A stretch of DNA of 64,000 bases, taken from Candidatus Versatilivorator sp. (GTDB lineage: Bacteria; Acidobacteriota; Terriglobia; Versatilivoradales; Versatilivoraceae). Shown here one piece after another: positions 13,146 to 62,790 of the stretch; the first letter of the stretch is position 1, and each line of letters opens with the position of its first letter. A model generated the notes under the pieces. The model saw only the letters and a program-made list of their open reading frames with translations, did not search any database and was not told the origin of the DNA. The stretch is taken from contig OZ253547.1 of NCBI GenBank assembly GCA_965262635.1, positions 3,445,514 to 3,509,513 on the forward strand, given 5' to 3'. Made by a program: the position numbers and the translations under genes.

Positions 13146-13186
13146 CTTTTTTCCTTCATTGCTTGTTGGATTAATGCACGGCCGAC

Positions 13187-42146: not shown

Positions 42147-42992
42147 CCCGCATTTCTCACCAAGTCGCAGCAACCATTGGGAAAGTATCTTTATCTTCAG
42201 GGTCCTGCTCGGCCCCATGCTCAAGACGACTGAGTACATACGGGGATGTGGATCCGGCACACGCGGCCGATGCCGGTGAGGCCGAGCCGGTTCTCTTCGA
42301 CGGCTACGCCCTGCGCGATGAGCCCATGCACGGCCCGGCGTCCCGTCCAGCCGAAGCACTCCAGCGCCTTCTCGCACCCCTTCAGATGGGCGATCATCGC
42401 TGCTGCGTCTCCCTGTGGGCCTGTCCGAGGGCCAGGATCCTGGAGGCGAACCGGATAGCCGGTTCAGGAACCGTCACGGTGTCATACAAACTACTATTGC
42501 GGAGCCCGCTTTTGGCGGTGTCAACAACGGGCGAGGAAGCAATGTCCCAGGGACTCCAGCTAAGTGCAAGAGTGTGACCAAGCTTCGCCGGTTAACGCTC
42601 AAGCCCTCCGGGAAGGCCCACAGCCCTTAATCGCGGCTGGTCGAATTGGGGTCGCTACGGGGCAGTTCACGCACCGCAGCATTTCGCCGAGTATCTTCGT
42701 AGACCTGGAACGGAACGGCGCCAGTGACCAAGCGAGGGTCGAGCACGTGTCCACTGCGACCCGCCTAAAAGGGGTGATCCATTCGTTGGACGCGGAGTAC
42801 GCTAGCCATGAACGCCCGCTCGCTCGCCGACGATCAACGGCTGGCTCGACATGCCCCGTGTCGAGTAGAATGGAGTGCCTCATGGGGTCAAGAAACCTGA
42901 CTGTCTGGCCACAGGACTCTACTTTCGGGCGACCAAGCGCAGAGAGACTCTAACGCGTTGGAGGACCGACTGACCAGGATTCGGATGTCTCC

Positions 42993-43199
42993 ATGATTGT
43001 CGATCCCGGCAAGATCCCGAACGTGCGGGCGAAATCCCCGCAGCACGTTCTACGGCTGGTACCGACGATACAAGAACAGGGATGTGACGGGACTGGCCGA
43101 CTGGCATCCGGCGCCGGCGTACCCTGGAACCGGATTCCCGACACGGTTCGTCAGCGCGTCGTCGACCCAGCGGATGAGGTGGGAACGAGAGCGCCATGA
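42993..43199 (+). pseudogene. fragment of an IS481/IS3-type transposase N-terminus (frameshifted)
   Basis: Two overlapping frames read ...RSTFYGWYRRYKNRDVTGLAD... and ...NRIPDTVRQRVVD..., resembling the HTH/OrfA region of IS481-like transposases. No intact ORF. Confidence 0.45.
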
Positions 43200-46100
43200 C
43201 CGTTCACTCTAAGGGCCGCGAGCTCTTCATCGTCGACAACAGTGTCTCCGGCTGGACCGGGCTCCGGTACTTGGAGGAGTGGTCCAGCATCGCGAAGGCG
43301 TTCGACATCGCGACCGGATACTTCGAGATCGGCGCTCTGCTCACCCTAGAAGGCAAGTGGCAGGAGCTCGACAAGATCCGGATCCTGATGGGGGCGGAGA
43401 CTACCCATCGGACTCGGAAGGCCATTCTCGAAGCGGTCCGGGCGCAAGCGCTCGACAGGCTCGATGAAAGCATGGAGGAGGACAAAGAGCCGAACCCCTT
43501 CCTGCACGGAGTCCATGCGATCCTCGAAGCGCTCCGCTCCGGGCAGATCGAATGCCGTGTCTACGACAAGGACAAATTCCACGCCAAGGCCTACATCACC
43601 CACGCAAGGCTCGAGGTCGTGGGCGCCCAGGGGCTGGTGGGCTCCAGCAACTTCACGCGCCCGGGTCTCACGAAGAACATCGAACTGAACGTCCAGATCC
43701 AGAGTGCGCGCGAGGTCGCGCAGCTCCAGGAGTGGTTCGAGACGCATTGGAACGAAGCGAGGGAGGTCACCGAGGCCGTCATTGAGACGATCTCGCGCCA
43801 TACGCACCTGTATTCGCCGTTCGACGTCTACGCGAAGGCCCTGCAGCAGTTCTTCCGGGGGCACGATCTGAGCGCGACTGAGTGGGACGAGACACGGTCG
43901 CGCATGTTCCCGCACCTCGATCGCTATCAGAAGGAGGCGTACTGGGCGCTCTTGAAGATCGCCCGGCAGCACGGCGGTGCGTTCCTCTGTGATGGCGTGG
44001 GTCTTGGGAAGACCTTCGTCGGTCTGATGCTGATCGAGCGGCTCATCCTTCACGAGGGCAAGCGTGTCGCGCTGTTCGCACCGAAGGCGACCAAGGAGGG
44101 CGTATGGGAGCCTCACCTGCGTCGGTGGCTTCCGCACATCGGCGGCGTCGGCGGTGGCGCGGACTTCAGCAACCTGGCCGTCTTCAGCCACACTGACCTG
44201 GGACGCAAGGGCGACTACCCGGAGCGTTTCCAGCGCATCGCGGAACTGGCCGACATCGTCGTCATCGACGAAGCGCACCACTTCCGCAATCCGGGTCGCC
44301 GGGGTGACCCGGACAGGGGAATCGAACCGTCGCGCTACTACCGCCTGTTCGAGTTGCTCGACAACGCGGAACGCCCCAAGACAGTGATCATGCTGACCGC
44401 CACCCCCATCAACAACCGCCTGAGCGACTTCCGTCACATGACCGAGCTCTTCACCCGTTGCGACGAGGCCTACTTCGCGCGCACGATCGGCGTGAACAAC
44501 CTGCGGGCGCACTTCAACCAGATGGAAAAGACGCTTCGCAGCCGTGTGGGGCAGGACGAGGCGGATGCCGCGGAGCACATGACCGAAGCCCAGCAGATCC
44601 TCTTCACCGACGCATTCTTCCGCCAGCTCGTCGTCCAGCGGAGCCGCGATTACGCCCGCGAGAGCCAGATTCGGGAGTACGGCAAAGCAGCCGCCTTTCC
44701 CGAGCGGAGGGACCCTCAGGTAGCGGCGTACTCGATCCGCAAGACCTACGGGGGGATGCTCAAGCTGATCGAGAAGGCCTTCGCGAAGCAGAGCCCCCTC
44801 TTCACGCTCGCGATGTACTACCCCCTGCATTGGTACAGGGGGCCGGACAAGGACATCGACCCGTTCGAGGAGAACCGCCAGAGACAGGTGGTCGGCCTCA
44901 TCCGGACCAACTTCCTCAAGCGCTTCGAGAGCTCCGTCGCCGCCTTCGAACTCTCCTGCGACCGCCTCCTCCAGAAACTGCTCGCCTTCCTTGAGGTTCA
45001 CAGCGAGAGCGACGCCGAGAAGAAGCGCCTCGAGCGCTGGAAGGCGCAGAACGCCGACGTCCTGGGCTACGCGGTCCAGCGCCAGCGCGAGCTCTGGGGC
45101 GAAGAAGGCAAGGAAGCGGACGACGAAGACATCGTCCCCCAGGAAATGCTCGACGCGGTCGAGCGCCTCGAGCGGGCCGAGTACGACGTAGAGGAGATGA
45201 TAGCCGAGACCTTCCTCGACCTCGACCAGATCGTGCAGTTCCTGGACGAGGCCCGGAAGTTCGAGCCGAAGCACGACGATAAGCTCAAGAAGCTCATCCG
45301 CCTACTCAATTCAAAGGCGCTGGCCGACCAGAAGATCCTGATCTTCACAGAGTTCGCCGACACGGCCCGCTACCTCAAGCGTCACCTGGACGAGGCCGGT
45401 ATCGAGGGTGTCGAGCAGGTGGACAGTGCCACGAAGAAGAACCGTTCAGACGTCATCCAGCGCTTCGCGCCCTACTACAACGGCCTCTCGTCCCCGGAAC
45501 TCGCCGAGCAGGGCCGCGAGGAGATCCGCGTCCTGATCTCCACCGATGTCCTCTCCGAGGGTCTCAACCTTCAGGACGCCTCGCGGATGACCAACTATGA
45601 CATCCACTGGAACCCGGTCCGCCTCATGCAGCGCATCGGCCGGGTGGACCGGCGCATGAATCCCGCAATCGAGAAGCGGCTCGTCGCCGACCATCCCGAG
45701 GCGGCCGCCTCGCGCGACACGGTCTGGTTCTGGAACTTTCTCCCGCCCGAGGAGCTGAACGAGATCCTCTCGCTCTACAGGAAGGTCACGCAGAAGGCGC
45801 TTCTGATCTCCAAGACCCTCGGGATCGAGGGCAAGAAGCTCCTCACCCCGGAGGACGATTACGAGGCGCTGAAGGAGTTCCACCACGCCTACGAGGGCAC
45901 GCGCACGGCCATGGAGGACATGCACCTCGAGTACCAGGCGCTGCTCCAAGCCGACCCGGAGCTGGAGGCGCGCCTCGCTCGCTTCCCCGGTGCGATCTTC
46001 AGCGGCCGCAAGCGCCCGGCAAGGGGCGTACGCGGTGTCTTCTTCTGCTACGCGCTCCCCGCCCTCGACAAGGAGAAGAACGAGTTCACCGAGGAGGCCG

Positions 46101-46345
46101 GCACCACCCGCTGGTACCTCTACGACCTCGACCGCGAGACCATCATCGAGGAGCCGGGCGAGATCGTCGCGAGCGTCCGCTCGAAGCCCGAGACGCCCCG
46201 GCACTGCACCACGGAGGAGAAGACGCTCCTCGACATCCGCAAGCGGATCGACAAGCACATCAAGAACAGTTACCTGAAGCGCGTGGACGCACCCGTCGGC
46301 GTCAAGCCGCGGCTGCACAGCTGGATGGAACTGAACGAGGGCTGA
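43196..46345 (+). CDS. PLD-family nuclease domain fused to SNF2-family helicase/translocase
   Basis: 1049 aa. N-terminus has [10 protein letters not shown]...GSSNFT (HxK...GSxN PLD motif). SNF2 motifs: GLGKTF (Walker A), [11 protein letters not shown] (DEAH box), [17 protein letters not shown]...QRIGRVDR (helicase C). Confidence 0.85.
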
Positions 46346-46349
46346 ACCG

Positions 46350-49300
46350 ATGCCGACCGACCACCGCGAACGCCTCGCCCGCATCCGCCGCTTCGACCAA
46401 CTCGTGGCATACCTGCGCGACGAGCTGGGCTGGCCGATCGACTCGGACGACTTTGAGGAGTTGACCTTCGAGTACACCCCGGAGGAGCTCGGGATCGACG
46501 CGAAGAACGCGGCCAAGATCCAGGAGATCAAGCGCCTGCGCCCGCTCGTGCCGGGCCAGCCCTGGGGCATCTTCTTCGTCAAGTTCGAGCCGAAACGGCT
46601 GCCCGTGGTGGCGCTGCGCCGCATCCTCAGCCAGGTGGCGCTCAAAAAGCGCGCCACGGCCAACAAGTCCGAGCGCCAGGCTTGGGCCGCCGACGACCTG
46701 CTCTTCGTCTCCAACTACGGTGAGGGCGAGGAGCGACGCATCGCCTTCGCGCACTTCTCGAAGCCCCGGGACAGCCACGACCTGCCCACCCTCAAGGTAC
46801 TCGGCTGGGACAACCTCGACACGCCGCTCCACCTCGACGCCGTCGCCCGCGAGCTGAGCGCGCACCTCGCCTGGCCCGACGACGAGGACGACCCCGACGC
46901 CTGGCGCGAGCGCTGGCGTGCTGCCTTTACACTGCGCCACCGCGAGGTCATCACGACCTCGAAGGAGCTCTCCGAGCGCCTGGCCGAGCTGGCCCGCTCG
47001 ATCCGCGACCGTATCCAGACGGCGCTCGCCATCGAGACCCAGGCCGGCCCGCTCACCCATCTCATGAAGGCGTTCCAGACCGCACTCGTCCACGACCTGG
47101 ACGAGGCCGGCTTCGCCGACATGTATGCCCAGACCATCGCCTACGGCCTGCTCTCGGCCCGCATCACCGACCCCACGCGGCGAACGGCCGACGACCTCGT
47201 CGCCCACGTGCGGACGAACCCATTCCTAAAGGAGCTGTTGGAGACCTTCCGCCACGTGGGTGGGCGCCGCGGCAAGGCCGGCGGTCCAGGCATCGACTTC
47301 GACGAGCTGGGCGTCTCCGAGGTGGTGGAGATGCTCGACCAGGCCAACATGGAGGCGGTGGTCCACGACTTCGGCGACCGGAACCCCCAGGAAGACCCGG
47401 TCATTCACTTCTACGAGCACTTCCTTGCCGCCTACGACAAGAAGCAGAAGGTGAGCCGGGGCGTCTTTTACACCCCGCGCCCGGTGGTCTCCTACATCGT
47501 GCGCTCGGTGGACCAGCTCTTGCGTAGCGAGTTCGGCCTCACCGACGGCCTCGCTGACAACACCACCTGGGGCGAGATGGCGAAGCGCCACAAGGAACTG
47601 AAGATCCCGGAAGGCACCTCGCCGGCGCAGGCCTTCGTCCAGATCCTCGACCCGGCCACCGGCACGGGCACCTTCCTCGTCGAGGTGATCGACCTCATCC
47701 ACAAGACGATGGTCGAGGAGTGGAAAGCCCAGGGCCACGGCGACAAAAAGATCGATGCGCTCTGGAACGACTACGTCCCCAAGCACCTCCTGCCGCGCCT
47801 GCACGGCTACGAGTTGCTAATGGCGCCTTACGCCATCGCGCACCTCAAGATCGGCCTCAAGCTCTTCGAGACCGGCTACCGGTTCGAGAGCGACGAGCGA
47901 GCGCAGGTGTACCTGACGAATGCGCTCGAGCCGCCGGTCGACGGGCAGCTCACCCTCGACTTCATGCCTGCGCTGGCGCATGAGGCTGAAGCGGTCAACA
48001 AGATCAAACGGAAGCAGCGGTTCACGGTGGTGATTGGGAATCCGCCCTACTCAGGCCTTTCCTCGAACATGGGTCCCTGGATCGACGGTCTTCTCAAGGG
48101 CCGCCTGCCAGATGGAAAGGCAACCTCCAGCTACTACCACGTAAACGGCAAGCCTCTCGGTGAGCGCAAGGTGTGGCTTCAGGACGACTACGTGAAGTTC
48201 ATTCGCCTCTCGCAGTGGCTCCTCGACGGCACGGGTGCGGGCGTTCACGGCTACATCACCAACCACGGCTACCTCGACAACCCCACGTTTCGAGGAATGC
48301 GCTGGTCGCTCATGGAGTCCTTCCGCCGGATCCGTGTGCTCGACCTTCACGGGAACCTCAAGAAGAAGGAGGCTCCGCCGGGGGGCAGCCGCGATGTCAA
48401 CGTGTTCGACATCCAGCAGGGCGTGGCTATCGGGCTTTTCACAAAGTCTGCCGCCGCCAGATCTGTCCACCACGCAGATCTGTGGGGCGAACGGGAAAGC
48501 AAGTACAGATGGCTACTGGAGCATGGGTCCTTAACCACCGAATGGGCGCAACTGGAACCAGCTCCACCGTTCTATCTGTTCGAGCCCTTCGACGACGCAG
48601 GAACGGACGCCTACTACGGCTGGCCTGCAATCAGCGAGGTGATGGCCGTCAACGTGACCGGCATCGTCACGGCGCGCGATGATTTCGTCATCGATTTCGA
48701 CCGGGAGGCCCTCCGAGGCCGGATCGCCGACCTGCGCTCGAAGTCACTGTCCGATGATGCAATCCGGAAGAAATACTTCGTCGGGAAGGGTTCGAAGAAG
48801 TATCCGCCCGGGGACTCGCGCGGATGGAAGCTGCCTGCGGCCCGGCGGAAGATCCGTGAAGATGATCAGTGGGATGAGCGGTACGCGCCTGTGCTGTATC
48901 GCCCGTTAGACGTCCGGGAGATGTACTACGTGCCGTGGATGGTGGACTGGCCTCGGACCGAAGCCATGCCACACATGCTCGCGGGGGAGAATGTCGCCCT
49001 GATGGCATGTAGGCAAGCAATCGGTAACGGCTGGAAACACTTACTGGCCACGCGATTGATTACCGATGACTCGATGGTTTCCAATCGAACACGCGAGCGA
49101 GGTTATCTTTTCCCCGTTTACCTCTATCCGGGGGTTGGAAGTGCAGATACATCACTGTTCAGCCGCTGGGCCGAGGGCAAGGACGGCCGCACGCCAAATC
49201 TGGACTCGGGGTTCGTCGAGCAGATTGCAGCCGCCACCGAACTGCGATTCGTCAGCGACGGCCGCGGCGATCTCTGGAAGACCTTCGGCCCCGAGGACGT

Positions 49301-50369
49301 CTTCGCCTACATCTACATGGTGTTCCACAGCCCCGGCTACCGCGGCCGCTACGAGGCCCATCTCAAGCTTGACTTCCCCCGCGTGCCGGTGCCCGGAAGT
49401 GTCGACCTCGTCCGAAAGCTGGCGGAGGCCGGCCATGACCTGCTGGCCCTCCACCTGCTCGAATCCCCGAAGCTCGGTAAGCCCATCACCGCCTACACCG
49501 GCCCCAGGAACCCAGAAGTCGGCCGTGTCGGCTGGTCGGACGGCACGGTCTGGCTCGACGCCGGCAAGACCAACGCCCGCGCGGGCCACCGTGCGACGAA
49601 ACGCGGCACCATCGGGTTCCAAGGCATACCCGAGGAAGTCTGGGACTTCCAAATCGGCGGCTACCAAGTTTGCCACAAGTGGCTCAAGGATCGGAAGGGA
49701 CGCACGCTCTCCGACGAGGACATCGCCCACTACCAGAAAATCGTCGTCGCCCTGAACGAGACCATCCGCGTCATGGCCGAAATTGACGAGGTCATCGAAG
49801 CCCACGGCGGCTGGCCCGCCGCATTCCATACGGCGTCGGAGGCGGATGCCGTATCGGAGTGGACGGCGAAGGTGGTGGCGTTCCGGCCACGCACGGTCGA
49901 GCCCGCGCCCGAGGACCGCTACGTCACCTGCGTGCCGCTCGTCGCGCTAAGAGCAGCAGCCGGCGACTTTGGCGATCCGCAGCATATCGAAGACGACGAT
50001 TTCGAGTGGGTCGCTGTCCAGTCCCGCCATCGTCTGCGCAAGGGCATGTTCGTCGCCCAGGTCGTCGGCAAGTCCATGGAACCCGCAGTCGCCGACGGCG
50101 CTTGGTGCCTATTTCGCGCTCCGGTCGAGGGCACACGCCAGAGCAAGACCGTTCTCGTCCAGCTCCGCGACGCCACCGACCCGGAGACCGGTCAGCGCTA
50201 CACGGTCAAGCGCTACAAGAGCCTAAAGGCGACAGAGGGCGACTCCTGGCGCCACGAGAAGATCACCCTTGAGCCCGTCAACCCGGACTTCGAGCCGATA
50301 GTGCTCACCGGTGTGGACGAAGGCGAGCTGCAGGTAATCGCGGAACTAGTCGACGTGTTGGGGGGCTGA
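46350..50369 (+). CDS. gamma-class N6-adenine DNA methyltransferase (BREX PglX / type IIG-like giant MTase) with C-terminal LexA-type S24 peptidase domain
   Basis: 1339 aa; FYTPRPVV (motif X), [11 protein letters not shown] (motif I), VIGNPPYSG (motif IV). The last ~149 aa (from nt 49920) align with the LexA C-terminal domain: [21 protein letters not shown] (Ser) and TVKRYK (Lys). Confidence 0.85.
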
Positions 50370-50372
50370 GGT

Positions 50373-53300
50373 ATGGTTCCGGAACAGCTCGAACCGCACC
50401 TGGAGCTGCTCCGCGAGGAGTACGTCCTCGTTCAGGCCTGGAAGAAGACCGCGTCCTACATCCGCTACCACAACTGGTTCTCCGACACGCTCGCCCTCGA
50501 CCGCGCGGCCGTGAACCTGCCGGCGTTTATCGGCGAAATCCGTGAACGTCTGCGGTCTTCGGAGAGATGGCAGAACGATCCTCTGCGAATCGTGCCAGCA
50601 CCCAAGAGCCAGCGCTGGAGAGCGCGTGAAGGCGTGTGGGAGCCCGTCGAGAAAAGGGCCGCCTCAGTACGACTTCGACCGCTCGCACACGTCAGTCTGG
50701 CCGACCAGGTGGTAGCGACGGCGCTGATGCTTTGTCTCGCCGACCGTGTCGAAACGCTGCAGGGGGATCCGCGGCGGCCGCTACGTGATCAAGAGTCGCG
50801 ACGGCAGGTGGTCTCCTACGGGAACCGACTGTTCTGCGACGCGATGGGAGGCGAACTGCGCCATCGGTGGGGATCCGCCAAGCTCTACCGTGCCTACTAC
50901 CAGGACTACCGCGCGTTCCTCTCCCGTCCGGAAGTTGCGGCCGAGTCGATTCTCGCAGCCCACGGAAAGCGGGTGTACGTCCTCCATGCGGACCTTCGAC
51001 AATTCTATGACCGCGTGCGCCCAGATCTGCTTGCCGAAGCGATCGACCGGGTCCGCCGCGACGGCGATGATCCGGCGTTCTTCTCTTTGGTGGCGTCCGT
51101 GCTCGATTGGGGTTGGCATCAGCGTGACGAAAGAGACGTCCGAATCTACGCAGAGCAGGCGGAGCTGGAGGACTTCACGCGGGTGGCACTGCCACAGGGA
51201 CTCGTCGCCTCCGGCTTCTTCGCGAACGTCGTGCTTCTTTCGTTCGACGAGGCGCTGCGCGTGGCGATCGGGACCGAGATCGCCCCCGGGATCCTGCTGG
51301 CGGATTCGTGCCGATACGTCGACGACTTACGGATCCTGGTTGCGGTTGCCCCGAACACGGATGGCTCCTCGAATGACCTTGAGAAGACCGTCGCAAGATG
51401 GCTAAATCAGGTACTGGAAGAGAATGCGACCGGCCTAGCCCTGGCCCCCGAGAAGACCCAGGTCGCAGCGCTCGGAGGCGACGAACGACCGCTGGTGCGG
51501 CAGAGCGCGAAGATGAACCGCATCCAGTCGGCGGTGTCGGGGGGATTCGACGGGCTCGGGGGCGAGGAGATCCTCGATGCCATCCAGGGCCTGATGCGCG
51601 CGCAGGAAGCCCTGAGCGTGGGCGACGACAGCGGCTGGCGATATTCCCCGGTCCCGGATGTGCGGGACGAGACGGTCGCCAGATTCGGCGCTGCCCGATA
51701 TCGAACCACGTTCCGTTCCATCAGGCCACTGCTCCAAGACAACGACACACCGGACGAGTCTGAGGTTGGAAGAGGCGATACCCCGCCCGGCGGGCGACTG
51801 CGCGTGGCGCGTACGCGGCGCGAGCTGGACGAGGATGCGAGGGCGTTTGCGCTCGGACTGCTTCAACGGTGGATCGACGACCCCTCGAACGTTCGATTGC
51901 TCCGGATCGGCCTCGATCTCTGGCCGGATGTCGAGTTGTTGCGGGAAGTTCTTTCACTGCTCCGCCCATTCACGGAAACGGGAGGTCGGCGAAAAGCGCC
52001 GAGGCGAGTCGCCTGGTACTGCCTCGCTGAAGTCTTGCGCGCGGGAGCCACGGAGACGGGCCTCGTGGCAGACACCGAATCGCTTCCATCAGAGATCGAC
52101 CTTGAATCCTACCGAGAGGAGCTTGGCAGGGAGGCCGCTCGCCTAGTGGGTTTGCCCGGGCCGACGATTCCCTGGTATCTCCGACAGCAGGCGCTGTTGT
52201 TTCTAGCAGCATGCGATCCCGCCGGAGCGCCCGTTACCCGCACGGGAACCGGATCGGAGACCCGGCACTACCGGGAGCTGATTCGATTTCTGCGCGGTGA
52301 AGGAGAACGCCTCAGGAGTTCGGATTTCGCGACCCTCGCGGTTCTCGCCAGACGTGCGTTCGTAGATCGAGTGCGGGCCGTTGAGTTGGCGCGGCCCGGC
52401 CTCAATCCGTCGCGGAAGCGGCAGCTTGCTCAGAGGGACCCGTCGTTTCTTCTTGAGCTCATCGACACCGAGACGGACGCTCTCCTCGTCGACGACCTTC
52501 CGGCGCGCATCCGTGAGGACTTCTGCCGGGCTTCGGAGAGTCCTGACGGAGACCACGACACGCTGGCCATGGCGGTCCTGAACACGCACCCGAGCGGTTC
52601 TCTTCGCAACGAGCTCTCTCTTCTGCGCTTCGCGATGGCTTTTCTCAGCCAGTGGGAGCAGCAGGAGTTTCCGCCCGAGGTGATCACGCCAGGGCACGTC
52701 ACGCTGATGCTCGGCGAGGACCAGGGGATCGCTGACGTAGAAAGCCTACGGATCCTGGGGAGTCGGGCCGACGCATCGGGCTCCCTGTACGAGGTGGCCG
52801 CGTGGTGCCAAGCCGGTGATCGGTGGCGCTTCCAGCTCGGTTTCCTGTTGCGGTTCATCTTGTCGGGGCAGCCGGACTTCACGCGCCCTGTCTGCAGGAC
52901 GGGCTGGAGAGAGACTGAGTCTTGCTATCGGCCTGCCGAGAGCCACTGGTACCAGCGGTTGTACGGCCTTTACAACGGGCAGCCGGCCTTCGGAGACGAC
53001 TGGCTTCCGATCACGGATTGGGTAGAAGGATTCCTCCTGGCCCTCCTGCGCTGGCCAGGATGCCTTGCTCCGGAAGGGTTCAGTTGGGTCGAGCAGGGCA
53101 TCGAAGAGGCGAGGACGCAGATTGGCCAGAGGATCGCTGATCTCGAGCAGCGCCGCGGTAGCGCTACCCGTGCACTGATCCTGCCGCTGCTGGCCAAACG
53201 ACCGACTGCGACGAACACGAAGAGGCCGTTACGTGCCTGCGTGGTACAGACAGCGATCCCGGCGGCCGACGACTTCCAGCACACAGATTTGGCACTCAAC

Positions 53301-53537
53301 GATTCCGCAATTCGGCGAAGACACCGCAATCACCTGTCGGCAGCGCTCGCGGCCGTGGAACGCATGTTGGCGTTGCGGGAGACGCACAAGGGGAGCGTAG
53401 GGCGGCTCGATTGGCTGATTCTGCCCGAGCTTGCCGTCCATCCGAATGACGTTCGTACTCATCTGGTCCCTTTCGCACGGGCTCACAGGGCAATGATTCT
53501 CACCGGGCTGACCTACGAAGAGATTCTAGTGTACTGA
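50373..53537 (+). CDS. reverse transcriptase domain protein, 5' part of an RT-nitrilase fusion (DRT1/UG1-like), truncated by IS630 insertion
   Basis: RT motifs: VLHADLRQFYDRVRPDLL (motif 2), ALPQGLVASGFFANVVLLSFD (motif 4), CRYVDDLRIL (YxDD) and LAPEKTQV (motif 6). C-terminal LRACVVQTAIP...WLILPELA begins a CN-hydrolase domain. The stop codon is supplied by the IS terminus. Confidence 0.85.
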   Translation: MVPEQLEPHLELLREEYVLVQAWKKTASYIRYHNWFSDTLALDRAAVNLPAFIGEIRERLRSSERWQNDPLRIVPAPKSQRWRAREGVWEPVEKRAASVRLRPLAHVSLADQVVATALMLCLADRVETLQGDPRRPLRDQESRRQVVSYGNRLFCDAMGGELRHRWGSAKLYRAYYQDYRAFLSRPEVAAESILAAHGKRVYVLHADLRQFYDRVRPDLLAEAIDRVRRDGDDPAFFSLVASVLDWGWHQRDERDVRIYAEQAELEDFTRVALPQGLVASGFFANVVLLSFDEALRVAIGTEIAPGILLADSCRYVDDLRILVAVAPNTDGSSNDLEKTVARWLNQVLEENATGLALAPEKTQVAALGGDERPLVRQSAKMNRIQSAVSGGFDGLGGEEILDAIQGLMRAQEALSVGDDSGWRYSPVPDVRDETVARFGAARYRTTFRSIRPLLQDNDTPDESEVGRGDTPPGGRLRVARTRRELDEDARAFALGLLQRWIDDPSNVRLLRIGLDLWPDVELLREVLSLLRPFTETGGRRKAPRRVAWYCLAEVLRAGATETGLVADTESLPSEIDLESYREELGREAARLVGLPGPTIPWYLRQQALLFLAACDPAGAPVTRTGTGSETRHYRELIRFLRGEGERLRSSDFATLAVLARRAFVDRVRAVELARPGLNPSRKRQLAQRDPSFLLELIDTETDALLVDDLPARIREDFCRASESPDGDHDTLAMAVLNTHPSGSLRNELSLLRFAMAFLSQWEQQEFPPEVITPGHVTLMLGEDQGIADVESLRILGSRADASGSLYEVAAWCQAGDRWRFQLGFLLRFILSGQPDFTRPVCRTGWRETESCYRPAESHWYQRLYGLYNGQPAFGDDWLPITDWVEGFLLALLRWPGCLAPEGFSWVEQGIEEARTQIGQRIADLEQRRGSATRALILPLLAKRPTATNTKRPLRACVVQTAIPAADDFQHTDLALNDSAIRRRHRNHLSAALAAVERMLALRETHKGSVGRLDWLILPELAVHPNDVRTHLVPFARAHRAMILTGLTYEEILVY

Positions 53538-54690
53538 CATCTAATTAATATTTAATAATGATGATTCGATGCTATAGTATGGGGCATGGCCCGTCCGATT
53601 ACAGTCCTCAAGCTCACAGCCGGTGAACGTCGAGAGTTACAGCGCCGGGTTAGTTCCAGCACGAGTTCGAAGCGCGATAGCTTGCGCGCCGAGATTGTCC
53701 TGCTCCGGAGCGAAGGGGTCAAGGTCGAGGAAGTGGCTGAACGATTGAACGTCAGCTTGCCGTGCGTCAGCAAGTGGTCGAGGCGCTTCCAGCACGCCGG
53801 CCTGGACGGCTTGAACGACAAAGCGGGACGGGGACGCAAACCGTGGGTGCCCATGGAGACAGTCGAACAAATCATCGTGAAAGTGACCCAGCCGCCACCG
53901 GGACGGACGCGATGGAGTTTGCGCAGCATGGCGAAGGAAGTCGGCGTCTCGCGCCACACGGTCCACACGATCTGGAAGCGTAACGACTTGAAGCCTCATC
54001 GCACGCGTACATTCAAGCTGTCGAAAGATCCGAAGTTCGAGCAGAAATTCTGGGATGTCATCGGTCTCTACCTCCATCCTCCCGAGAAAGCGCTCGTGCT
54101 CTGCTGTGACGAGAAAACCCAGTGTCAGGCTCTGGAACGCAGTCAGCCGGGATTGCCCTTAGGAATCGGCCACATTCGCACCCGAACTCATGACTACAAG
54201 CGACACGGCACCATCACCTTGTTTGCGGCTCTCAACTACCTGGACGGCAAGCTGATCTCCCGGACTGAACAGCGGCACACCCATGTGGAGTGGTTGCGTT
54301 TCCTCAAGCAGATCGAACGGGAAACACCCAAGTCGCTGGCCATTCACCTCATTGTCGACAACTACAGTACTCATAAGCATGAACGTGTCCGCCGTTGGGT
54401 CGACCGTCATCCACGCATCCACTACCACTTCACGCCGACCGGGAGCTCCTGGCTGAATCTTGTCGAACGCTTCTTCGCCGATCTCACCAGCGATGTGATT
54501 CGCGACGGCAGCTTTCGCAGCGTCCCCGAACTGGTTCGCGCCATCGAATCCTATCTGGCCGACCGCAACGCGGATCCTCAACGCTACACATGGCATACAA
54601 AAGGCGAAGCAATCCTCGCCAAGATTCAACGAGCCAAAGAGGCTCTGGCCAACGTTAATTAATTAAACCCATTTCAATGTCAGGACACTA
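53529..54690 (+). mobile_element. IS630-family insertion sequence (1162 bp) with imperfect terminal inverted repeats GTGTACTGACAT / ATGTCAGGACAC and TA target duplication (53527-28 / 54689-90)
   Basis: TIRs match 11/12 positions. Excising 53529-54690 restores one continuous reading frame across the nitrilase domain. Confidence 0.85.
53586..54662 (+). CDS. IS630-family (Tc1/mariner-like) DDE transposase
   Basis: 358 aa; N-terminal HTH, DDE triad region ...DNYSTHKHE... and IS630-typical C-terminus. Confidence 0.9.
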   Translation: MARPITVLKLTAGERRELQRRVSSSTSSKRDSLRAEIVLLRSEGVKVEEVAERLNVSLPCVSKWSRRFQHAGLDGLNDKAGRGRKPWVPMETVEQIIVKVTQPPPGRTRWSLRSMAKEVGVSRHTVHTIWKRNDLKPHRTRTFKLSKDPKFEQKFWDVIGLYLHPPEKALVLCCDEKTQCQALERSQPGLPLGIGHIRTRTHDYKRHGTITLFAALNYLDGKLISRTEQRHTHVEWLRFLKQIERETPKSLAIHLIVDNYSTHKHERVRRWVDRHPRIHYHFTPTGSSWLNLVERFFADLTSDVIRDGSFRSVPELVRAIESYLADRNADPQRYTWHTKGEAILAKIQRAKEALANVN

Positions 54691-55287
54691 GCGGGGCAAC
54701 CGCTCGTCAACTCAGCCCTGTGGGTCATTCCGGAGTGGTCGGACGCCTACGGGCTGCAGATCAAGACTCGCCGTCAGGGGAAGGCCCATCTCGCCCCGAA
54801 TGAGCAAGCGTTCAACGGTGGTGGGGCGCACGTTCTTCAGGGATTCCGGCCCTGCCAGTGGTTGATCGGCTATCCGTGGTCGAGTGCGGACGGTACCCAG
54901 CCCGTCTGGCTCACGGCAGCGGTGTGCTACGACGCGACGGACCTCGGCTTGGCTGCGGATCTCAGGGATGTGTCGGATGTCTTGGCGATCCCGGCGCTCA
55001 ACAAGGACGTGAAGACGTTCGACCAAATGGCGTTGGCGCTGCACTACCATATGTTCCAGCTCGTGGTCGTCGCCAATAACGGCCAGTACGGCGGGAGCAA
55101 CGCATACTGGCCCCGGAGCAATGCTCACATCAGGCAGGTCTTCCACACCCACGGGCAGCCGCAGGCTTCGATCGCGTTCCTCGAAATCGACGACATCGGC
55201 GCGTTCCTGAAGCGCCACGACGTGTCGGGAGCCAACGCCGACAACTGGAAGCATCCCCCCGCAGGTCTGAACATAGCATCGCCGTGA
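54691..55287 (+). pseudogene. 3' remnant of the RT-nitrilase gene: C-terminal half of the CN-hydrolase (nitrilase) domain
   Basis: In frame with 50373..53528 once the IS is removed. Contains catalytic-Lys block RRQGKAHLAP and catalytic-Cys block AAVCYDATD. Confidence 0.75.
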
Positions 55288-55647
55288 GGTTGGTAGTGAC
55301 AGGCTTCGCCGCCGGTGCCCGCCGCCTACCGGCCCACCACGTCACCATCCGCGTTCCGTGGCACCACAGGGGCTGGGCCGGAACGGTGTGTGCGCGGCCG
55401 CTGGACAACTCGAGCTGCCTCATCCTGCCCCGCATCGACGCGGGGGGATATGCCGCTTAATGGGGGCGGCTTCGTGCAGGGACTTGATGGAGTATCGCCG
55501 GTCTGGCTGGTAGGGTTTTGCAACACCCTTGAGGCTCACGGACTATGCCCGACATCCTGCGCCGGCGCAATGAACCATGCGGGTTAACTTATCGACACGA
55601 CTTGAAACACCCCCCTCCCCGCGCGCTGAGAGGGGGATAGCGGAAAA

Positions 55648-55675
55648 GCAAGCGTGTCTCCCTCTCCACGCTTGC
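55648..55675 (+). terminator. candidate stem-loop (GCAAGCGTG-N10-CACGCTTGC) downstream of the RT-nitrilase gene
   Basis: Perfect 9-bp inverted repeat; no obvious U-tract. Confidence 0.25.
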
Positions 55676-56230
55676 CCGTCCACACCGTTGAAAGCCTGAG
55701 AGGCATTGGCCCGACCCACCACACCTGGTAGGCATTTGCCTTCTCCCGGCCTTGCAAATCCGTTTGATCCAAGCCGACATTTGGGCCGAATCCAACCTTA
55801 GGCATTGCCCAAATACCTCGCTTGCCATAAAATTTCCACCAAAAGGGCCCTGCACGGCAGCCTATGAAATTGACCCCTATGCGGGCCAAAGGGCAATTGT
55901 CAGAGCATCCTTTTTCCCAGTAACCTCAGTCTGTCGAACCCACACGCCCTAGGTGGACACAGCCAGTAGGCTATCCCGCTCAGGCGACTGTGTAAAAAGG
56001 AGTCTAACATAAAGCTACCGCATGTCAAGCGTTTTTGTACCGTATATGCAAAATAAACCTGACCCCTGAGCGATGAGTTCTAGCTACAATTCTGAACTCG
56101 GCTGAAGCCGCCATGGTGGACGGGAGCCTGACAATTCTGCGAGGCTCTCGTAGCGCTCCCGTGGAGTCCGTCCTGAAATATCTCCTGCGGGCCTGGGAAG
56201 AAATACTTTGGGACGAAAACCCCGAGCCGG

Positions 56231-59173
56231 TTGAACGACGGGATGAATCCAAAAGTGTCCCGGGTTTCTGAGCCACTCCCGACCCGGGTGTTGCCAGGAC
56301 GCCCTCCCCCATCCCAACCAGTTGCCAAGACATCATCCATGGCCTCACCCGTACCAGGCAATTCCGTTCCAACCCAATGGGTAAGCTCCACCCTCGACCG
56401 GCTCCCCCTGGAGGCCAAGCTCGGCCAACTCATCATGCCGGCTATGCGTGGGATTCACCTGAATGAAGCCAGTGCCGAATACAAGCAACTGAAGCATCAG
56501 ACACAGCAACTCGGCGTGGGCGGTTTCATTCTATTCGAGGGAGATATTTACGAGTCAGCCGTCCTCATCCACCGACTGCAGTCCCAGGCGCCGATTCCCT
56601 TGCTGATTGGATCCGACTTCGAGCGCGGAGCCGCCTTCCGCATTCGCCACACCCTCCCCCTGCCCTGGAACATGGCCGTGGGAGCCACCCGATCGGAGCA
56701 ATGGGCCTGCTGGCAGGGACGGGTCACCGCCCAGGAAGCCCGAAGCCTGGGGGTCAACTGGGTGTTTGCGCCGGTGGTGGATGTCAACAACAATCCGGCC
56801 AACCCGGTCATCAACATTCGATCCTACGGAGAGGACCCTCAAACAGTGGGCCGTCTGGGTGCGGCATTTGTCACGGGAGCCCAGCAGGCCGGGGTGCTGG
56901 CAACGGCCAAGCATTTTCCGGGTCACGGCGATACCGAGGTGGATTCCCATCTGTCTTTGCCGGTGATTTCCGTGCGGCGCCCACGGTTGGAACGGATCGA
57001 GTGGGTTCCCTATCGGGAGGTGATCGGGGCCGGTGTCATGGCGATCATGACGGCTCATGTAGCCATCCCGGCCTTGGAGAAAGACCCCACCCGACCGGCC
57101 TCGCTTTCGGCCGCGGTACTGGAACAGGCCTTGAGGAACGAACTGGGGTTTCGGGGCTTGATCGTAACGGACTCCATGAAGATGCGGGGACTGACCCGAG
57201 GATACTGGAGCGGCGAAGCGGCGGTTCAGGCTATTCAGGCCGGTGTCGACGTGCTCCTGGACCCACCCGATGCCCAGGTCATCTTTGGCGCACTGCTGGA
57301 GGCGGTGAAGAATGGCCGCCTTTCCGAGGCCCGCGTGGACCGATCGGTAGAGCGGGTCCTGCAAGCCAAGGCCTGGCTGGGCCTGAGCCGCAGGAAGCGG
57401 ATCGACTTCCGGCGCCTGGCTCGGACAATGAATGCTCCCGCAATCCACGCTCAAGCCCAACATTTGGCCGATGCTTCCGTCACTCTGGTGAGAGACGCCG
57501 TGTCTCGGGTTCCGGTGGATGTCCGTGGAATCCGCTCGGCCCATTTGATTGTCGTTTCCGCCAGCCCATCGCCGGGGGCTGCCGCCGAACTGGAAGGTCA
57601 ACTGAGGACTCGACTCGATGCTGTGACCGTGGATCGCCTCTCCTCTGAAGCTGCTCCCTCCCTGCTGAACCAGGCCAGATCCAGGGCCAGGAAGGCGGAT
57701 CTCTGTCTGGTGGCCCTGTTTGTTCCGCTTGTGACCGGGACCGGCCGCCTCGGACTGCCAACTCCTCTGGCGGATTGGTTGAAGGGGCTGGTCCGGGCCA
57801 ATCCCTCCGCGCTTTTGATTTCCCTGGGCGACCCCTACCGGATTCAGCAGCTTTCGTTCTTCCCAACCTACCTGTGCACCTACAGCCACGTAGCCACTTC
57901 CCAGAGGGCGGCAGTCAAGGCGCTCTTTGGAGAAATTCCGCTGGCAGGCGAGCTGCCGGTGTCCATTCCGGGCGTGGCCGCACGGGCTACCGGTCTCAAG
58001 CGGGAAGCGTTGCCGATGGTCCTGGGAAAACCCCGGCTGGTCGGAGCGAACCAGGCCCGACAGGGCATCCTGGTCCTTCGAAAACAGCTCCAGCAGATTG
58101 TCCGGCAATTCATCGCCCTTCAAGCCTTTCCGGGAGCCTCCTTGGCCGTGGGCTACCAGGACAACCTGCTGGTGCGTCAAGGCTACGGCAGGTTGGATTA
58201 CGGATCGACCAGTCCTTCGGCAAAGCCGCATACCATTTACGACCTGGCATCGCTCACCAAGGTGGTGTGCACCACCACCTTGGTCATGCAGGCCTGCGAG
58301 CGGGGGGATATAGACCTGGAAGACCCCCTCGGCCGCTACTTTCCGGAGTTCCGGGTGGGCGGAAAACACGAGGTCACACTCAAGCATCTGTTGACCCATT
58401 CCTCGGGACTTCCGGCACACTTTCCCCTTTACGCACACACCAGCGGAAAGGAACACATTCTTCGACGGATTCTGGAAATTCCCCTGGAGCACCGGCCGGG
58501 AAGTCGCAGCCTCTACAGCGACCTGGGCTTCATTCTGCTGGGGGGCGTCCTGGAAAGGGTTTGTGGACAGAGCCTCGACAACCTGGCTCGCGAGCGGATC
58601 TTCCAACCCCTGGGAATGCGTCGCACCGGCTTTCAACCCCCTTCCGCCTGGAGGCCCCGCATCGCTCCCACGGAAATCGACCCCTGGAGAAAACGCCTGC
58701 TCCGGGGTGAAGTTCATGATGAAAACGCCTATGCGATGGGAGGAGTGGCTCCCCACGCCGGACTGTTCGGCACAGCAACAGACCTGGGAGTCTTTTGTCA
58801 GACTCTCCTGAACGGCGGCGTCTACAATCATCGCCGAATCGTGAAGCAGAGCACGTTGGAAGCTTTCACCCGACGTCAGGCCCAGCCATCCGGCAGCACT
58901 CGAGCCCTCGGTTGGGACACCCCTTCGCCCAAGGGCTCCTCGGGTGACAAGCTGTCGAGGCAGTCCTATGGTCATACGGGATTTACCGGAACCTCCCTTT
59001 GGATCGATCCCCAGCGCCGGCTCTTCATCGTTTTCCTGACCAATCGGGTGCACCCCTCCCGGGAGAACGGCGCCATCCAGTCAGCCCGGCGTCAGGTGGC
59101 CGATACCGTGGCGGAGGCTGTGGATAAAATGGGGATGATTCAGACAGATACCGGACAGGGTGACGGGACATGA
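56231..59173 (+). CDS. bifunctional glycoside hydrolase family 3 (NagZ-like beta-N-acetylhexosaminidase) / beta-lactamase-family serine hydrolase
   Basis: 980 aa; GH3 N-terminal domain (KHFPGHGDT, catalytic D in TDSM); C-terminal class-C beta-lactamase/PBP motifs ASLTK (SxxK), YSD. The true start may be downstream of 56231. Confidence 0.85.
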   Translation: MNDGMNPKVSRVSEPLPTRVLPGRPPPSQPVAKTSSMASPVPGNSVPTQWVSSTLDRLPLEAKLGQLIMPAMRGIHLNEASAEYKQLKHQTQQLGVGGFILFEGDIYESAVLIHRLQSQAPIPLLIGSDFERGAAFRIRHTLPLPWNMAVGATRSEQWACWQGRVTAQEARSLGVNWVFAPVVDVNNNPANPVINIRSYGEDPQTVGRLGAAFVTGAQQAGVLATAKHFPGHGDTEVDSHLSLPVISVRRPRLERIEWVPYREVIGAGVMAIMTAHVAIPALEKDPTRPASLSAAVLEQALRNELGFRGLIVTDSMKMRGLTRGYWSGEAAVQAIQAGVDVLLDPPDAQVIFGALLEAVKNGRLSEARVDRSVERVLQAKAWLGLSRRKRIDFRRLARTMNAPAIHAQAQHLADASVTLVRDAVSRVPVDVRGIRSAHLIVVSASPSPGAAAELEGQLRTRLDAVTVDRLSSEAAPSLLNQARSRARKADLCLVALFVPLVTGTGRLGLPTPLADWLKGLVRANPSALLISLGDPYRIQQLSFFPTYLCTYSHVATSQRAAVKALFGEIPLAGELPVSIPGVAARATGLKREALPMVLGKPRLVGANQARQGILVLRKQLQQIVRQFIALQAFPGASLAVGYQDNLLVRQGYGRLDYGSTSPSAKPHTIYDLASLTKVVCTTTLVMQACERGDIDLEDPLGRYFPEFRVGGKHEVTLKHLLTHSSGLPAHFPLYAHTSGKEHILRRILEIPLEHRPGSRSLYSDLGFILLGGVLERVCGQSLDNLARERIFQPLGMRRTGFQPPSAWRPRIAPTEIDPWRKRLLRGEVHDENAYAMGGVAPHAGLFGTATDLGVFCQTLLNGGVYNHRRIVKQSTLEAFTRRQAQPSGSTRALGWDTPSPKGSSGDKLSRQSYGHTGFTGTSLWIDPQRRLFIVFLTNRVHPSRENGAIQSARRQVADTVAEAVDKMGMIQTDTGQGDGT

Positions 59174-60339
59174 AGCGACTTGCAGTGACCGCCGGCAGAG
59201 TGATGACTCCCGACCGGGTGATTCTGGATGGCGTGGTTCTGGTGGAAGGTCCCAAGATCCTGGAAGTCGGGAGCCGGCGGGCCGTGCGATTTTCCCGGGA
59301 CGAATTCCAGGTTGTGGGCCACTCCCAACAACTGCTGGCTCCAGGTTTCATCGATGTGCACACCCACGGTGCGATGGGGCGAGACGTGATGGAGGGAACG
59401 GACGAGGCGCTTGAGGTGATTTCCCGGTTCCTGGCCGCCCACGGCACCACATCCTTCCTGGCAACTACGGTCACGGCTTCTCCCATTGCGACCCTGCAAG
59501 CCGTGGAAGCCCTGGGCAGCCAGGTGGATCGACCCTTGCCGGGCGCCCGCATGCTGGGTCTTCACCTGGAAGGGCCATTCATCAATCCCGAAAAGCGGGG
59601 GGCCCATACCGCCAAGTACATTCGCCGTCCTTCTACGCTCATCTTTGACCAGTTGCTGGCCTGCTCCAGCCATCAGATCAAACTGATAACGGTGGCTCCG
59701 GAAGTCGAGGGTGGCCTGGAATTGATCCGGTTTGCCCGTGCCAAAGGGGTCGTCGTCTCTCTGGGCCATTCCAACGCCACCCTGGAAGAAACCATGGCAG
59801 CCATCGCTTTGGGCGCCGGCAACGCCACCCACACCTTCAATGCCATGAGACCCTTCAGCCATCGCGACCCGGGAATCCTTGGCGCCGTCCTGACCGCTCC
59901 GGAGATCTGGGCCGAGTTGATTGCCGATGGGGTACACGTTTCGCCCGCCGCCATCAAGCTTTGCATTCAGTGCAAGAGCGCCCGAAGGATCCTGTTGATC
60001 AGTGACGCCGTCAGCGCTACCGGCATGCCGGAGGGACAGTACCGGCTGTCCGATATCGAAATCACGCTTTCAGGAGGCATTTGTCGAACCCGGGAGGGGC
60101 AGCTGGCGGGCAGCACTCTGACTCAGGATCAAGCCCTGCGAAACATGGTCCGCTGGAGCCATCTGCCGCTGGAAGCCGTGCTCGGCATGCTTACCCGCAA
60201 TCCGGCCCAATCCCTGGGAATTGCCGAAAGCAAAGGAACCCTGGCAGAGGGCCGAGACGCCGACATGGTGCTTCTCGACCGGAACCTCAGGGTACACACC
60301 ACCATCATCCAAGGGGAGGTGAGCCACACCGTTGGATAA
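59170..60339 (+). CDS. nagA: N-acetylglucosamine-6-phosphate deacetylase
   Basis: 389 aa; APGFIDVHTHG metal-binding motif; 4-nt overlap with the upstream GH3 gene. Confidence 0.9.
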   Translation: MKRLAVTAGRVMTPDRVILDGVVLVEGPKILEVGSRRAVRFSRDEFQVVGHSQQLLAPGFIDVHTHGAMGRDVMEGTDEALEVISRFLAAHGTTSFLATTVTASPIATLQAVEALGSQVDRPLPGARMLGLHLEGPFINPEKRGAHTAKYIRRPSTLIFDQLLACSSHQIKLITVAPEVEGGLELIRFARAKGVVVSLGHSNATLEETMAAIALGAGNATHTFNAMRPFSHRDPGILGAVLTAPEIWAELIADGVHVSPAAIKLCIQCKSARRILLISDAVSATGMPEGQYRLSDIEITLSGGICRTREGQLAGSTLTQDQALRNMVRWSHLPLEAVLGMLTRNPAQSLGIAESKGTLAEGRDADMVLLDRNLRVHTTIIQGEVSHTVG

Positions 60340-61600
60340 GATCCTGGTCAAAGGAGGTACCGCGCTGAGGGGTCGGGTCACCGTCAGCGGCGCCAAGAAC
60401 GCGGCCCTGCCGGCCATGGCGGCATCCCTGCTGACCGACGAGCCCGTCAGACTGCGCAATTTGCCCAAGGTCCGCGACATTCAAACCACCGGTCGTCTCC
60501 TTCAGGAAATGGGCTGTCAGGTCGATTTGAAAGACCTGCAGGAGAGCCATGGCTGTGAATTGATTGCCCGACATCCGATCTCCTGCGTAGCCCCTTACGA
60601 GAGGGTCAAGACCATGCGTTCTTCGGTGCTGGTCCTGGGGCCTCTGCTGGCCCGCTTCGGCCGGGCCCGCGTGTCTCTGCCCGGAGGGTGCGCCATTGGA
60701 GCCCGTCCCATAGACCTCCACATCAAGGGGTTGAAGAAACTTGGCGCCAGCCTGACCATCCAGCATGGATACGTCGAGGCCAAGGCGCCCCGACTGAAGG
60801 GAGATAAGGTGGTCTTCGACCGGGTCACGGTCACCGGGACCGAAAACCTGATGATGGCGGCTTGCCTGGCGAAAGGCGAGACGATCCTGCACAACGCCGC
60901 CCGCGAACCCGAGGTGGCCGATCTGGCCGATCTGCTGCGCTCGATGGGCGCCCGGATCGAGGGAGACGGCAGCAGCACCATCCGAATTCAGGGCAGGCCG
61001 CAGTTGGGCGGGGCCGACCACACCATTATTCCCGACCGCATCGAGGCGGGGACCTTCATGGTGGCTGGAGCCATCACCGGCGGTGCCGTCGAGCTGGTCG
61101 ATTGTCGTCCCGACCATCTGACGGCCGTAATCGAGAAGCTGGAAGAAACCGGCATCACCATCGAACGCACCCGGCCGGACGCCTGCCGGGTCACGGCCCC
61201 CCGACGACTTCAGCCCAGGGATGTCACCACCATGGAGTACCCGGGGTTCGCTACGGATATGCAGGCCCAATACATGGCGCTGATGACCCAGGCTCACGGG
61301 GCTTCCATTATCACCGAGACCATCTTCGAGAGTCGTTTTTTGCATGCCAGCGAGCTGGTGCGGATGGGGGCCAGCATCAGGATCGAGGGCAACCGGGCCG
61401 TCATCTCAGGTCGCCGGGATCTGACGGGGGCCAAAGTGCTGGCCTCCGACCTGAGAGCCAGCGCCTCCCTGATCCTGGCAGGACTGGTTGCCAGAGGAGA
61501 AACTCTGGTTCACCGGGTATACCATCTGGACCGTGGCTATGAAGCCATCGAGGAAAAGTTGAGGAAACTGGGGGCAAGGATTCAGCGAATCACCGATTGA
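60332..61600 (+). CDS. murA: UDP-N-acetylglucosamine 1-carboxyvinyltransferase
   Basis: 422 aa; MDKILVKGGTALRGRVTVSGAKNAALP canonical MurA N-terminus and active-site Cys region. Confidence 0.95.
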   Translation: MDKILVKGGTALRGRVTVSGAKNAALPAMAASLLTDEPVRLRNLPKVRDIQTTGRLLQEMGCQVDLKDLQESHGCELIARHPISCVAPYERVKTMRSSVLVLGPLLARFGRARVSLPGGCAIGARPIDLHIKGLKKLGASLTIQHGYVEAKAPRLKGDKVVFDRVTVTGTENLMMAACLAKGETILHNAAREPEVADLADLLRSMGARIEGDGSSTIRIQGRPQLGGADHTIIPDRIEAGTFMVAGAITGGAVELVDCRPDHLTAVIEKLEETGITIERTRPDACRVTAPRRLQPRDVTTMEYPGFATDMQAQYMALMTQAHGASIITETIFESRFLHASELVRMGASIRIEGNRAVISGRRDLTGAKVLASDLRASASLILAGLVARGETLVHRVYHLDRGYEAIEEKLRKLGARIQRITD

Positions 61601-61652
61601 GACCCAATCGGCCCGTGCGGCTTGATCGGCTGGGGTATAATCCGAGGGTTTC

Positions 61653-62180: not shown

Positions 62181-62557
62181 TCTCCAGTCCAACCGTCTGG
62201 CGAAAGCAAGGTGCCTGCCCTGAGAGGTGCCGCCAGGCTCGCTCAGCCAGGCTCGACCCATGCCACCGATCCTCTTCCGAAGTCGCCGAGTTTCCAGGAA
62301 AAGCCTGTGCCGGGTCGGCAGGATGCAAACAGAAAGAGACCGGCTTCATGACGGCTCGTGAACAAAGCGGCTGGCCGGCCCAAGAGAAGGGCGCTTTCTC
62401 GGCTCTCCCCAGGATCTCCGGCAACCGCAACCCTGTGAAGGGGCCAGCACTGCCCCGGGGACACCATCCATCCTTGTTTCACCCGCCACGAATCTCATAA
62501 CTCCTCCACCATCTCCAGCCGTTGCCCGGTTCCCGTACCTGCCGAGGCCCCATTCCG

Positions 62558-62776: not shown

Positions 62777-62790
62777 AATTCCCTATTTGT

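Follow-up and report, generated by a model that had tools for sequence, protein, structure and literature searches.

An IS630-family insertion in a DRT1 reverse transcriptase-nitrilase gene of an eroding defence island

Does a phage-defence gene that ends inside a mobile element still encode a working protein, and how did it come to be in that state? The question is raised by a 64,000-nt stretch of contig OZ253547.1 (assembly GCA_965262635.1, Candidatus Versatilivorator sp.), a metagenome-derived DNA that we call the window and in which all positions without a locus name are counted. Within it the gene for DRT1, an abortive-infection protein that combines a reverse transcriptase (RT) with a C-terminal nitrilase (carbon-nitrogen hydrolase) domain, is interrupted by a 1160-bp insertion sequence (IS) of the IS630 family. 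We conclude, with a probability of about 0.93, that this gene was recently knocked out by the element and that this took place in an accessory island that is itself eroding. The mobile element and the gene are members of known families (IS630 and DRT1/UG1), gene disruption by an IS is commonplace, and current understanding is not overturned by a locus whose parts were already known. What it provides is a clean case of a defence gene that appears to have been caught just after its inactivation, with both alleles known to the base.

The insertion and the uninterrupted allele

The open reading frame (ORF) of the interrupted gene occupies 50373..53537 on the forward strand and encodes 1054 amino acids (aa), ending in ...LTYEEIL-V-Y-TGA. 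Its DRT1 portion is the 5' part of the gene (50373..53528, +), which holds codons 1-1052 with the RT domain, the helical repeats and the first ~100 nitrilase residues. The codons that follow, GTG TAC TGA (53529-53537), lie inside the left inverted repeat of the IS (53529-53540, GTGTACTGACAT), and the stop at 53535-37 belongs to the element, as an earlier note on this DNA, made from the sequence alone, had recognized. The 3' part, codons 1053-1250 and the stop (54691..55287, +), follows the element and is now untranslated. Joined together, 50373..53528 and 54691..55287 give 3753 nt and 1250 codons with no internal stop, and the protein reads ...LTYEEIL|AGQPLVNSALW... across the rebuilt junction.

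The earlier note had also held that removal of the IS and one TA would recover an intact ORF of 1250 aa, and had proposed looking for an uninterrupted allele in related strains. Such an allele exists on a public metagenome contig (L001, ENA ERZ25071132), where the protein P0001 has 1250 aa and is 100% identical to the reconstruction. Positions 1-11302 of L001 correspond to window 42211-53529 and positions 11299-14789 to window 54688-58178; the 184 differences between the two sequences all lie 5' of window position 50000, and the DRT1 gene of L001 therefore does not differ from ours at any base. In L001 the empty site, GAAGAGATTCTAGCGGGGCAACC, contains a single TA within CTAG. A second intact allele, P0123, carries two substitutions.

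The element itself runs from 53529 to 54688 (+). Its right inverted repeat (54677-54688, reverse complement GTGTCCTGACAT) matches the left one at 11 of 12 nt, the one-base mismatch being GTGTAC on the left against GTGTCC on the right; in most other copies of the same IS the repeats are perfect. The target CTAG has been opened so that one TA (53527..53528) precedes the element and another (54689..54690) follows it, the left junction reading ...GAGATTCTA|GTGTACTGACATCTAATTAAT... and the right junction ...ATGTCAGGACAC|TAGCGGGGCAACC.... Between the repeats lies an intact transposase of 358 aa (53586..54662, +) with matches to Pfam DDE_3 (5.5e-21), HTH_23 (1.2e-14) and HTH_32 (1.4e-14) as well as HTH_28 and HTH_29. 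IS630 elements insert at CTAG and duplicate the TA. In its length of ~1.16 kb, its single DDE_3 transposase with an N-terminal helix-turn-helix, its short inverted repeats and its target, the element resembles other members of this family, which belongs to the IS630/Tc1/mariner superfamily.

The inverted-repeat motif alone is weak evidence for an element, with two matches in the window against 0.34 expected and two reached in 4 of 100 shuffles. The stronger evidence comes from other genomes, in which the exact transposase is found on at least 44 contigs. Seven other copies for which DNA was available are 99.7-100% identical over the 1160 bp and sit in unrelated contexts, and the flanks cTA|IS|TAg together with the same ends recur in all copies (8/8, ours included). 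The element is a bona fide IS630-family insertion, in agreement with the earlier assignment. No second copy of the IS or its transposase was found in the window, where the searches found nothing beyond the two ends already described and a 24% match without significance. CTAG is ~8-fold rarer in the window than expected (0.4-0.5 vs 3.5 per kb), and landing sites for this IS are therefore limited; the intact DRT1 gene has 4 of the ~27 CTAG sites, too few for a firm claim that CTAG enrichment drew the IS to it. As a side observation, this IS also has copies within or next to genes of a defence type (L079, L080, L081, L085), namely a DpdG neighbourhood, Type I restriction-modification hsdS/hsdR, DUF2806 and a caspase-DEAD protein.

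The insertion is very recent, because the two halves of the gene show no divergence from the intact allele and copies of the IS that are 100% identical to this one occur at other sites (in L080 and L082). A second assembly, made from a different ENA sample (ERZ25068833, contig ctg57096; L088/L089), has the same insertion; it is 100% identical to window 50332-62194, IS included, and differs in structure beyond. The sequences part just downstream of murA, where comparison of window 62194-63782 with L089:11863-14727 reveals an indel of ~1.3 kb. The truncated product of 1054 aa (P0122) has entries on two contigs, of which one is 5.25 Mb long. Public gene calls on L088/L089 place an antisense ORF of 180 aa over the orphaned 3' part of DRT1 (window 54712-55254, -); this is a shadow ORF in GC-rich DNA and not a gene. 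The correct annotation of the locus would be a DRT1 pseudogene, in place of the present calls of an RT of 1054 aa and an antisense hypothetical protein.

Identity of the gene and likely effect of the insertion

By every testable sequence feature the gene is a DRT1/UG1 (class 3 UG/Abi) RT-nitrilase. A single uninterrupted match to the PADLOC Drt1a profile covers the rebuilt protein almost end to end (E=0, 1255 bits; residues 5-1245, profile positions 5-1176 out of 1176), and the PADLOC profile RTasNitrilase for RT-associated nitrilases matches it as well (1.1e-58). The protein's sole relative in the PDB is 9YFD, 'Defense-associated reverse transcriptase 1' (E=9e-121), and the nitrilase domains of the two proteins align at 1.7e-46 with ~40% identity; the authors of that structure superimposed its nitrilase domain on solved nitrilases (PMC13275509). 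Both the identity proposed in the earlier note and the contiguous nitrilase alignment expected of the rebuilt frame are upheld by these matches. The profile check that the note suggested came out divided: Pfam RVT_1 was detected (3.4e-8, residues 191-365), while Pfam CN_hydrolase (PF00795) gave no match to the rebuilt protein at E<=0.1. The nitrilase assignment is thus based on the PADLOC RT-nitrilase profiles and the solved structure and not on Pfam CN_hydrolase.

The published layout of 1200-1300 aa with an RT, helical repeats and a carbon-nitrogen hydrolase (Mestre 2022, PMC9226505) is found in the rebuilt ORF and in P0001, and is lost in the ORF of 1054 aa, in which the nitrilase is truncated. 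DRT1 of 9YFD has the same architecture and length, its repeats being alpha-helical. Another of the closest known systems is DRT type 1 of Gao et al. 2020, which is from Klebsiella pneumoniae according to its citation in PMC9226505. An Rfam scan of the window returned only two tRNAs, far from the gene; the absence of a non-coding RNA around DRT1 agrees with its class 3 assignment.

The catalytic residues were located by alignment to 9YFD and their conservation was judged in 63 full-length DRT1 homologues from genome contigs. The RT active site YVDD (codons 315-318, nt 51315-51326, +) aligns with D324/D325 of 9YFD. The nitrilase residues E1019 (LILPE, nt 53427-29, +), K1083 (RQGK, nt 54781-83, +) and C1131 (AAVCYD, nt 54925-27, +) align with E1017, K1077 and C1116. 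Ser389 (IQSAVSGGFD, nt 51537-39, +) is the only invariant serine in the segment that matches the priming loop of 9YFD around S402, and is our candidate for the priming residue. Near the C-terminus, K1239 and A1243 (nt 55249-51 and 55261-63, +) stand in a WK-x-P-P-A-G motif (WKHPPAG) whose K-x-x-x-A spacing equals that of the lid residues K1219/A1223 of 9YFD; the alignment stopped at residue 1210, and this match is one of motif and position only. YVDD, S389, E1019, K1083, C1131, K1239 and A1243 are each invariant (63/63). With the IS placed after codon 1052, E1019 lies upstream of it and K1083, C1131 and the lid lie downstream, confirming that the nitrilase triad is cut between E and K.

What this would mean for the protein can be judged from the work on the homologue. 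The RT of DRT1 carries out template-free DNA synthesis primed on its own serine, S402 (Neville et al. 2026, PMC13275509), and the short DNA adducts that result drive the assembly of tetramers and filaments (PMC13275509). Contacts within the tetramer are made exclusively by the nitrilase domain, and a domain-swapped C-terminus closes over the nitrilase site (PMC13275509). The filament keeps the nitrilase closed and dormant until phage infection releases it, leading to abortive infection (PMC13275509). Defence is abolished by an RT-dead mutation, by S402A, C1116A, K1219A and A1223F, and by deletion of the last 8 or last 12 residues, and a nitrilase-dead DRT1 still makes DNA without giving any defence (PMC13275509).

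The events at the locus began with the entry of the IS630-family element into CTAG after codon 1052, with duplication of the TA. Translation now ends two codons into the IS, and the product of 1054 aa retains the RT, the candidate priming serine, the repeat region and E1019 and has lost K1083, C1131, the C-terminal lid and most of the oligomerisation domain. In such a protein the nitrilase effector would be dead and the assembly of tetramers and filaments would be lost, so that no defence is to be expected. Inactivation of the gene in the window is most likely, because C1116A and the deletion of the last eight residues kill defence in the homologue and because the tetramer contacts need the nitrilase domain (PMC13275509); on this point the earlier note, which had called inactivation probable, gains support from published mutants. 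The insertion adds a further loss to a defence cassette that was acquired horizontally and is eroding.

Several observations weigh against this account. The loss of function is inferred from a homologue that was tested in E. coli and whose nitrilase domain is the ~40% identical one described above, and Pfam CN_hydrolase, as noted, did not recognize the rebuilt protein. In the pairwise HMMER alignment Ser389 falls two columns away from S402. The truncated protein has all the RT features and may retain some residual activity, given that the nitrilase-dead mutant makes DNA. Finally, the insertion is supported at the level of assemblies and not of reads, and the second assembly has only 4x coverage.

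The last of these points bears on whether the junction might be an artefact, with a multicopy IS wrongly threaded into DRT1 by a metagenome assembler. The sequence is indeed metagenome-derived, and a repeat found on so many contigs is of the kind that causes misjoins. A misjoin, however, would not yield a TA duplication at CTAG that matches seven other copies exactly, nor would it leave the two halves of DRT1 in frame and complete to the base. Moreover, the second assembly with the same insertion is from a different sample and is structurally distinct downstream, and the truncated product was recorded twice. An assembly error as the origin of the junction is very unlikely.

If the insertion is real, it could still be something other than a knockout. 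Related samples contain both the intact and the interrupted allele with the same DNA on either side, and precise loss of the IS and one TA would regenerate the exact wild-type ORF, as would be required if a toxic abortive-infection gene were kept phase-variable by a reversible switch. The coexistence is more simply explained by an ancestral intact allele, and no excision footprints or circular intermediates were seen, though no search was aimed at them. In other genomes four other IS families have entered DRT1, and these insertions, like the deletions and frameshifts found in the cassette, have the look of simple decay, which leaves the switch little more than a slim chance. Continued usefulness of the truncated RT with its helical repeats, for example in making DNA adducts for another effector of the island, is improbable as well. 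It would draw on an undamaged promoter-proximal part, with YVDD, the repeats and the invariant Ser389 in place, and on the DNA synthesis that persists in the published nitrilase-dead DRT1 (PMC13275509). That same mutant gives no defence, though, and oligomerisation runs through the nitrilase domain that is mostly missing here (PMC13275509); nor does an RT-only homologue of such length occur as a conserved form among the 77 DRT1 loci that we collected. We therefore retain the recent knockout of DRT1 by the IS as our reading of the locus.

The island and its genes

The interrupted gene is part of a strain-specific defence island of 13.28 kb, IS included (42201..55483, +), which occupies a slot between phoX and a GH3/beta-lactamase gene. 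Two island-free sister strains (L092, L093) align only to window 40684-42200 and 55484-57807. In gene tables, five conspecific contigs have phoX, then ~1.4 kb, then GH3, and in most of the conspecific contigs that share an identical MurA the island is absent and GH3 comes straight after phoX. The GH3/beta-lactamase gene (start 56339) and its upstream region are common to island-free strains. The island replaces ~180 bp of the island-free strains rather than cleanly interrupting them, and no att-like direct repeats were seen by eye at its junctions. An antisense ORF of 73 aa at 55584-55805 was considered as a member of the island and rejected, being present in island-free strains too.

The slot between phoX and GH3 is a hotspot, and in other strains (L091-L094 and the conspecific contigs) it is taken up by a group II intron RT, by an IS630 element or by a short repeat. 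A dispersed repeat of ~250 bp, with copies that are 86% identical, is found at window 24151-24400 and 15216-15422 and, as the reverse complement, at L092 1462-1713, where it fills the empty slot; it could be an element resembling a miniature inverted-repeat transposable element.

The first cassette gene (43196..46345, +) encodes a protein of 1049 aa with an HKD(PLD) nuclease and an Snf2/SF2 helicase (Pfam PLDc_2 3.5e-12, ResIII, Helicase_C 2.6e-18; PADLOC C3a139 'HKD+Snf2' 1.3e-58), and is conserved upstream of DRT1 in many loci. It is followed by a Type IIG/ISP-like N6-adenine methyltransferase of 1339 aa (46350..50369, +; Pfam Type_ISP_C 1.2e-77, N6_Mtase, Eco57I; PADLOC REase_MTase_IIG 2.4e-202), whose stop lies 3 nt before the ATG of DRT1. 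Between them these two genes cover the components of Type ISP and Type IIG restriction-modification enzymes (LlaGI-like, MmeI-like), with nuclease, SF2 helicase and N6-adenine methyltransferase parts and a Type_ISP_C specificity domain. Unlike in those enzymes, the functions are spread over two proteins, the nuclease is of the HKD/PLD type and not of the Mrr type, and the methyltransferase has an extra LexA-like S24 domain. This domain, Peptidase_S24 (5.2e-5), is at the C-terminus (residues 1201-1333, about nt 49950-50348) and carries GKSME and VKRY motifs. The S24 domain turns up by itself in related loci: a stand-alone ORF of 148 aa overlaps the start of DRT1 at L043:9558-10004, and in L004, L020, L028 and L076 only the S24-coding remnant is left upstream of DRT1. 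An unrelated methyltransferase of 905 aa at L020:1-2718 has the same C-terminal S24 domain.

Downstream of DRT1 there is a stub of PDC-S68, a single-gene phage-defence candidate of PADLOC, with 58 codons (55284..55460, +). Its GTG start overlaps the TGA of DRT1 (GTGA), it matches the PDC-S68 profile over positions 4-40 (7.4e-13), that is, the first ~40 of the profile, and its homology ends near 55445. Elsewhere intact PDC-S68 is a RecD-like SF1 helicase of ~1270 aa, with a range of ~1260-1390 aa (PADLOC PDC-S68 E=0; L018:13762-17577, L030:13767-17528). Compared with the described candidate, which has ~1220 aa at full length, the window thus holds a dead remnant only. In related loci PDC-S68 and DRT1 are translationally coupled. 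A tblastn search of the window with full PDC-S68 found residues 1-50 and no further remnant, and a literature search for PDC-S68 returned no papers. The gene is already a stub in L001, which is free of the IS, and the loss of PDC-S68 therefore preceded the insertion. The suggestion in the earlier note that the IS might silence genes downstream is moot for the same reason, the next gene being this stub.

In the two papers on UG1/DRT1 that we consulted, the only partner named is the transmembrane drt1b, which lies beside ~18-19% of drt1 genes (~18% in PMC13275509), and neither names a helicase or a methyltransferase as a partner. The gene in the window shares with DRT1 of 9YFD the RT active site and the nitrilase E/K/C, and probably also the serine of the priming loop and the K-x-x-x-A of the lid. 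It differs in that it is split by the IS, so that the full protein cannot be made, and in that it has no adjacent drt1b and is flanked by the Type IIG-like methyltransferase and the RecD-like helicase PDC-S68 in a tight, operon-like array. No drt1b-like membrane gene was found downstream of DRT1, the only ORF there being the PDC-S68 stub.

Distribution and repeated decay of the cassette

A scan with one genome per species returned the 77 DRT1 loci mentioned above. Homologues whose proteins are 80-90% identical (loci L002-L031, L057, L061 and L062) occur in metagenome-assembled genomes labelled as Binatia, Acidobacteriota, Vicinamibacterales, Thermoanaerobaculia, Spirochaetia, Alpha- and Gammaproteobacteria, Gemmatimonadetes, Brocadiaceae and others. 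Such identity over many phyla indicates recent horizontal transfer of the cassette, possibly as a spread within one habitat type. The SB06xx bin names among the related genomes may point to sponge microbiomes. As for the host of the window, the named relatives of its MurA, at ~70% identity, are mostly Acidobacteriota/Terriglobia, which places it approximately as a probable uncultured member of the Acidobacteriota.

The partner genes accompany only part of this group. Among ~50 loci in which DRT1 is at least 57% identical, the methyltransferase is present upstream, whole or as a remnant, in ~20, and PDC-S68 is present downstream, whole or as a remnant, in ~20. The methyltransferase then lies 3-6 nt upstream of DRT1 and PDC-S68 overlaps it or follows within ~30 nt. 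A group of DRT1 genes of ~50% identity (Rhodobacterales, Sphingomonadales, Rhizobiales) has neither partner.

One might go further and propose that DRT1 of this clade belongs to an undescribed four-gene operon (HKD-Snf2, S24-methyltransferase, DRT1 and PDC-S68) that moves as a unit between phyla, in which the RT-nitrilase would work with the coupled RecD-like helicase and perhaps with the restriction-like pair, the IS hit being an episode of its decay. We regard this proposal as speculative and rather doubtful. It is worth stating because the known phage trigger of DRT1, Dda of T4, is a RecD-like helicase, as is PDC-S68. Were it true, a genome that lost PDC-S68 would be left with a toxin under faulty regulation, and an IS that inactivated this toxin would be favoured.

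The context of the insertion is in any case of wider interest than the insertion itself. This tight array of four genes has been broken repeatedly by ISs, deletions and frameshifts. Such decay bears on what activates DRT1 and on the cost of carrying it. Four other genomes have insertions within DRT1, namely an IS4-like element in L024 (10790-12107), an IS630-like element in L065 (11504-12763), IS1595 in L011 (3414-4446) and IS21 together with IS5 in L062 (6473-10000). The methyltransferase is interrupted in L003 (7508-8734), by an IS630-like element whose transposase is 45% identical to that in the window, and in L024 (7380-8714); all of these insertions are independent. Internal deletions affect the cassette in L006 and L061, and the reading frame of DRT1 is split in L019, L056 and L061. 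PDC-S68 is truncated in L002, L012, L021, L062 and L076. The insertion in the window is one instance of this general erosion of the cassette.

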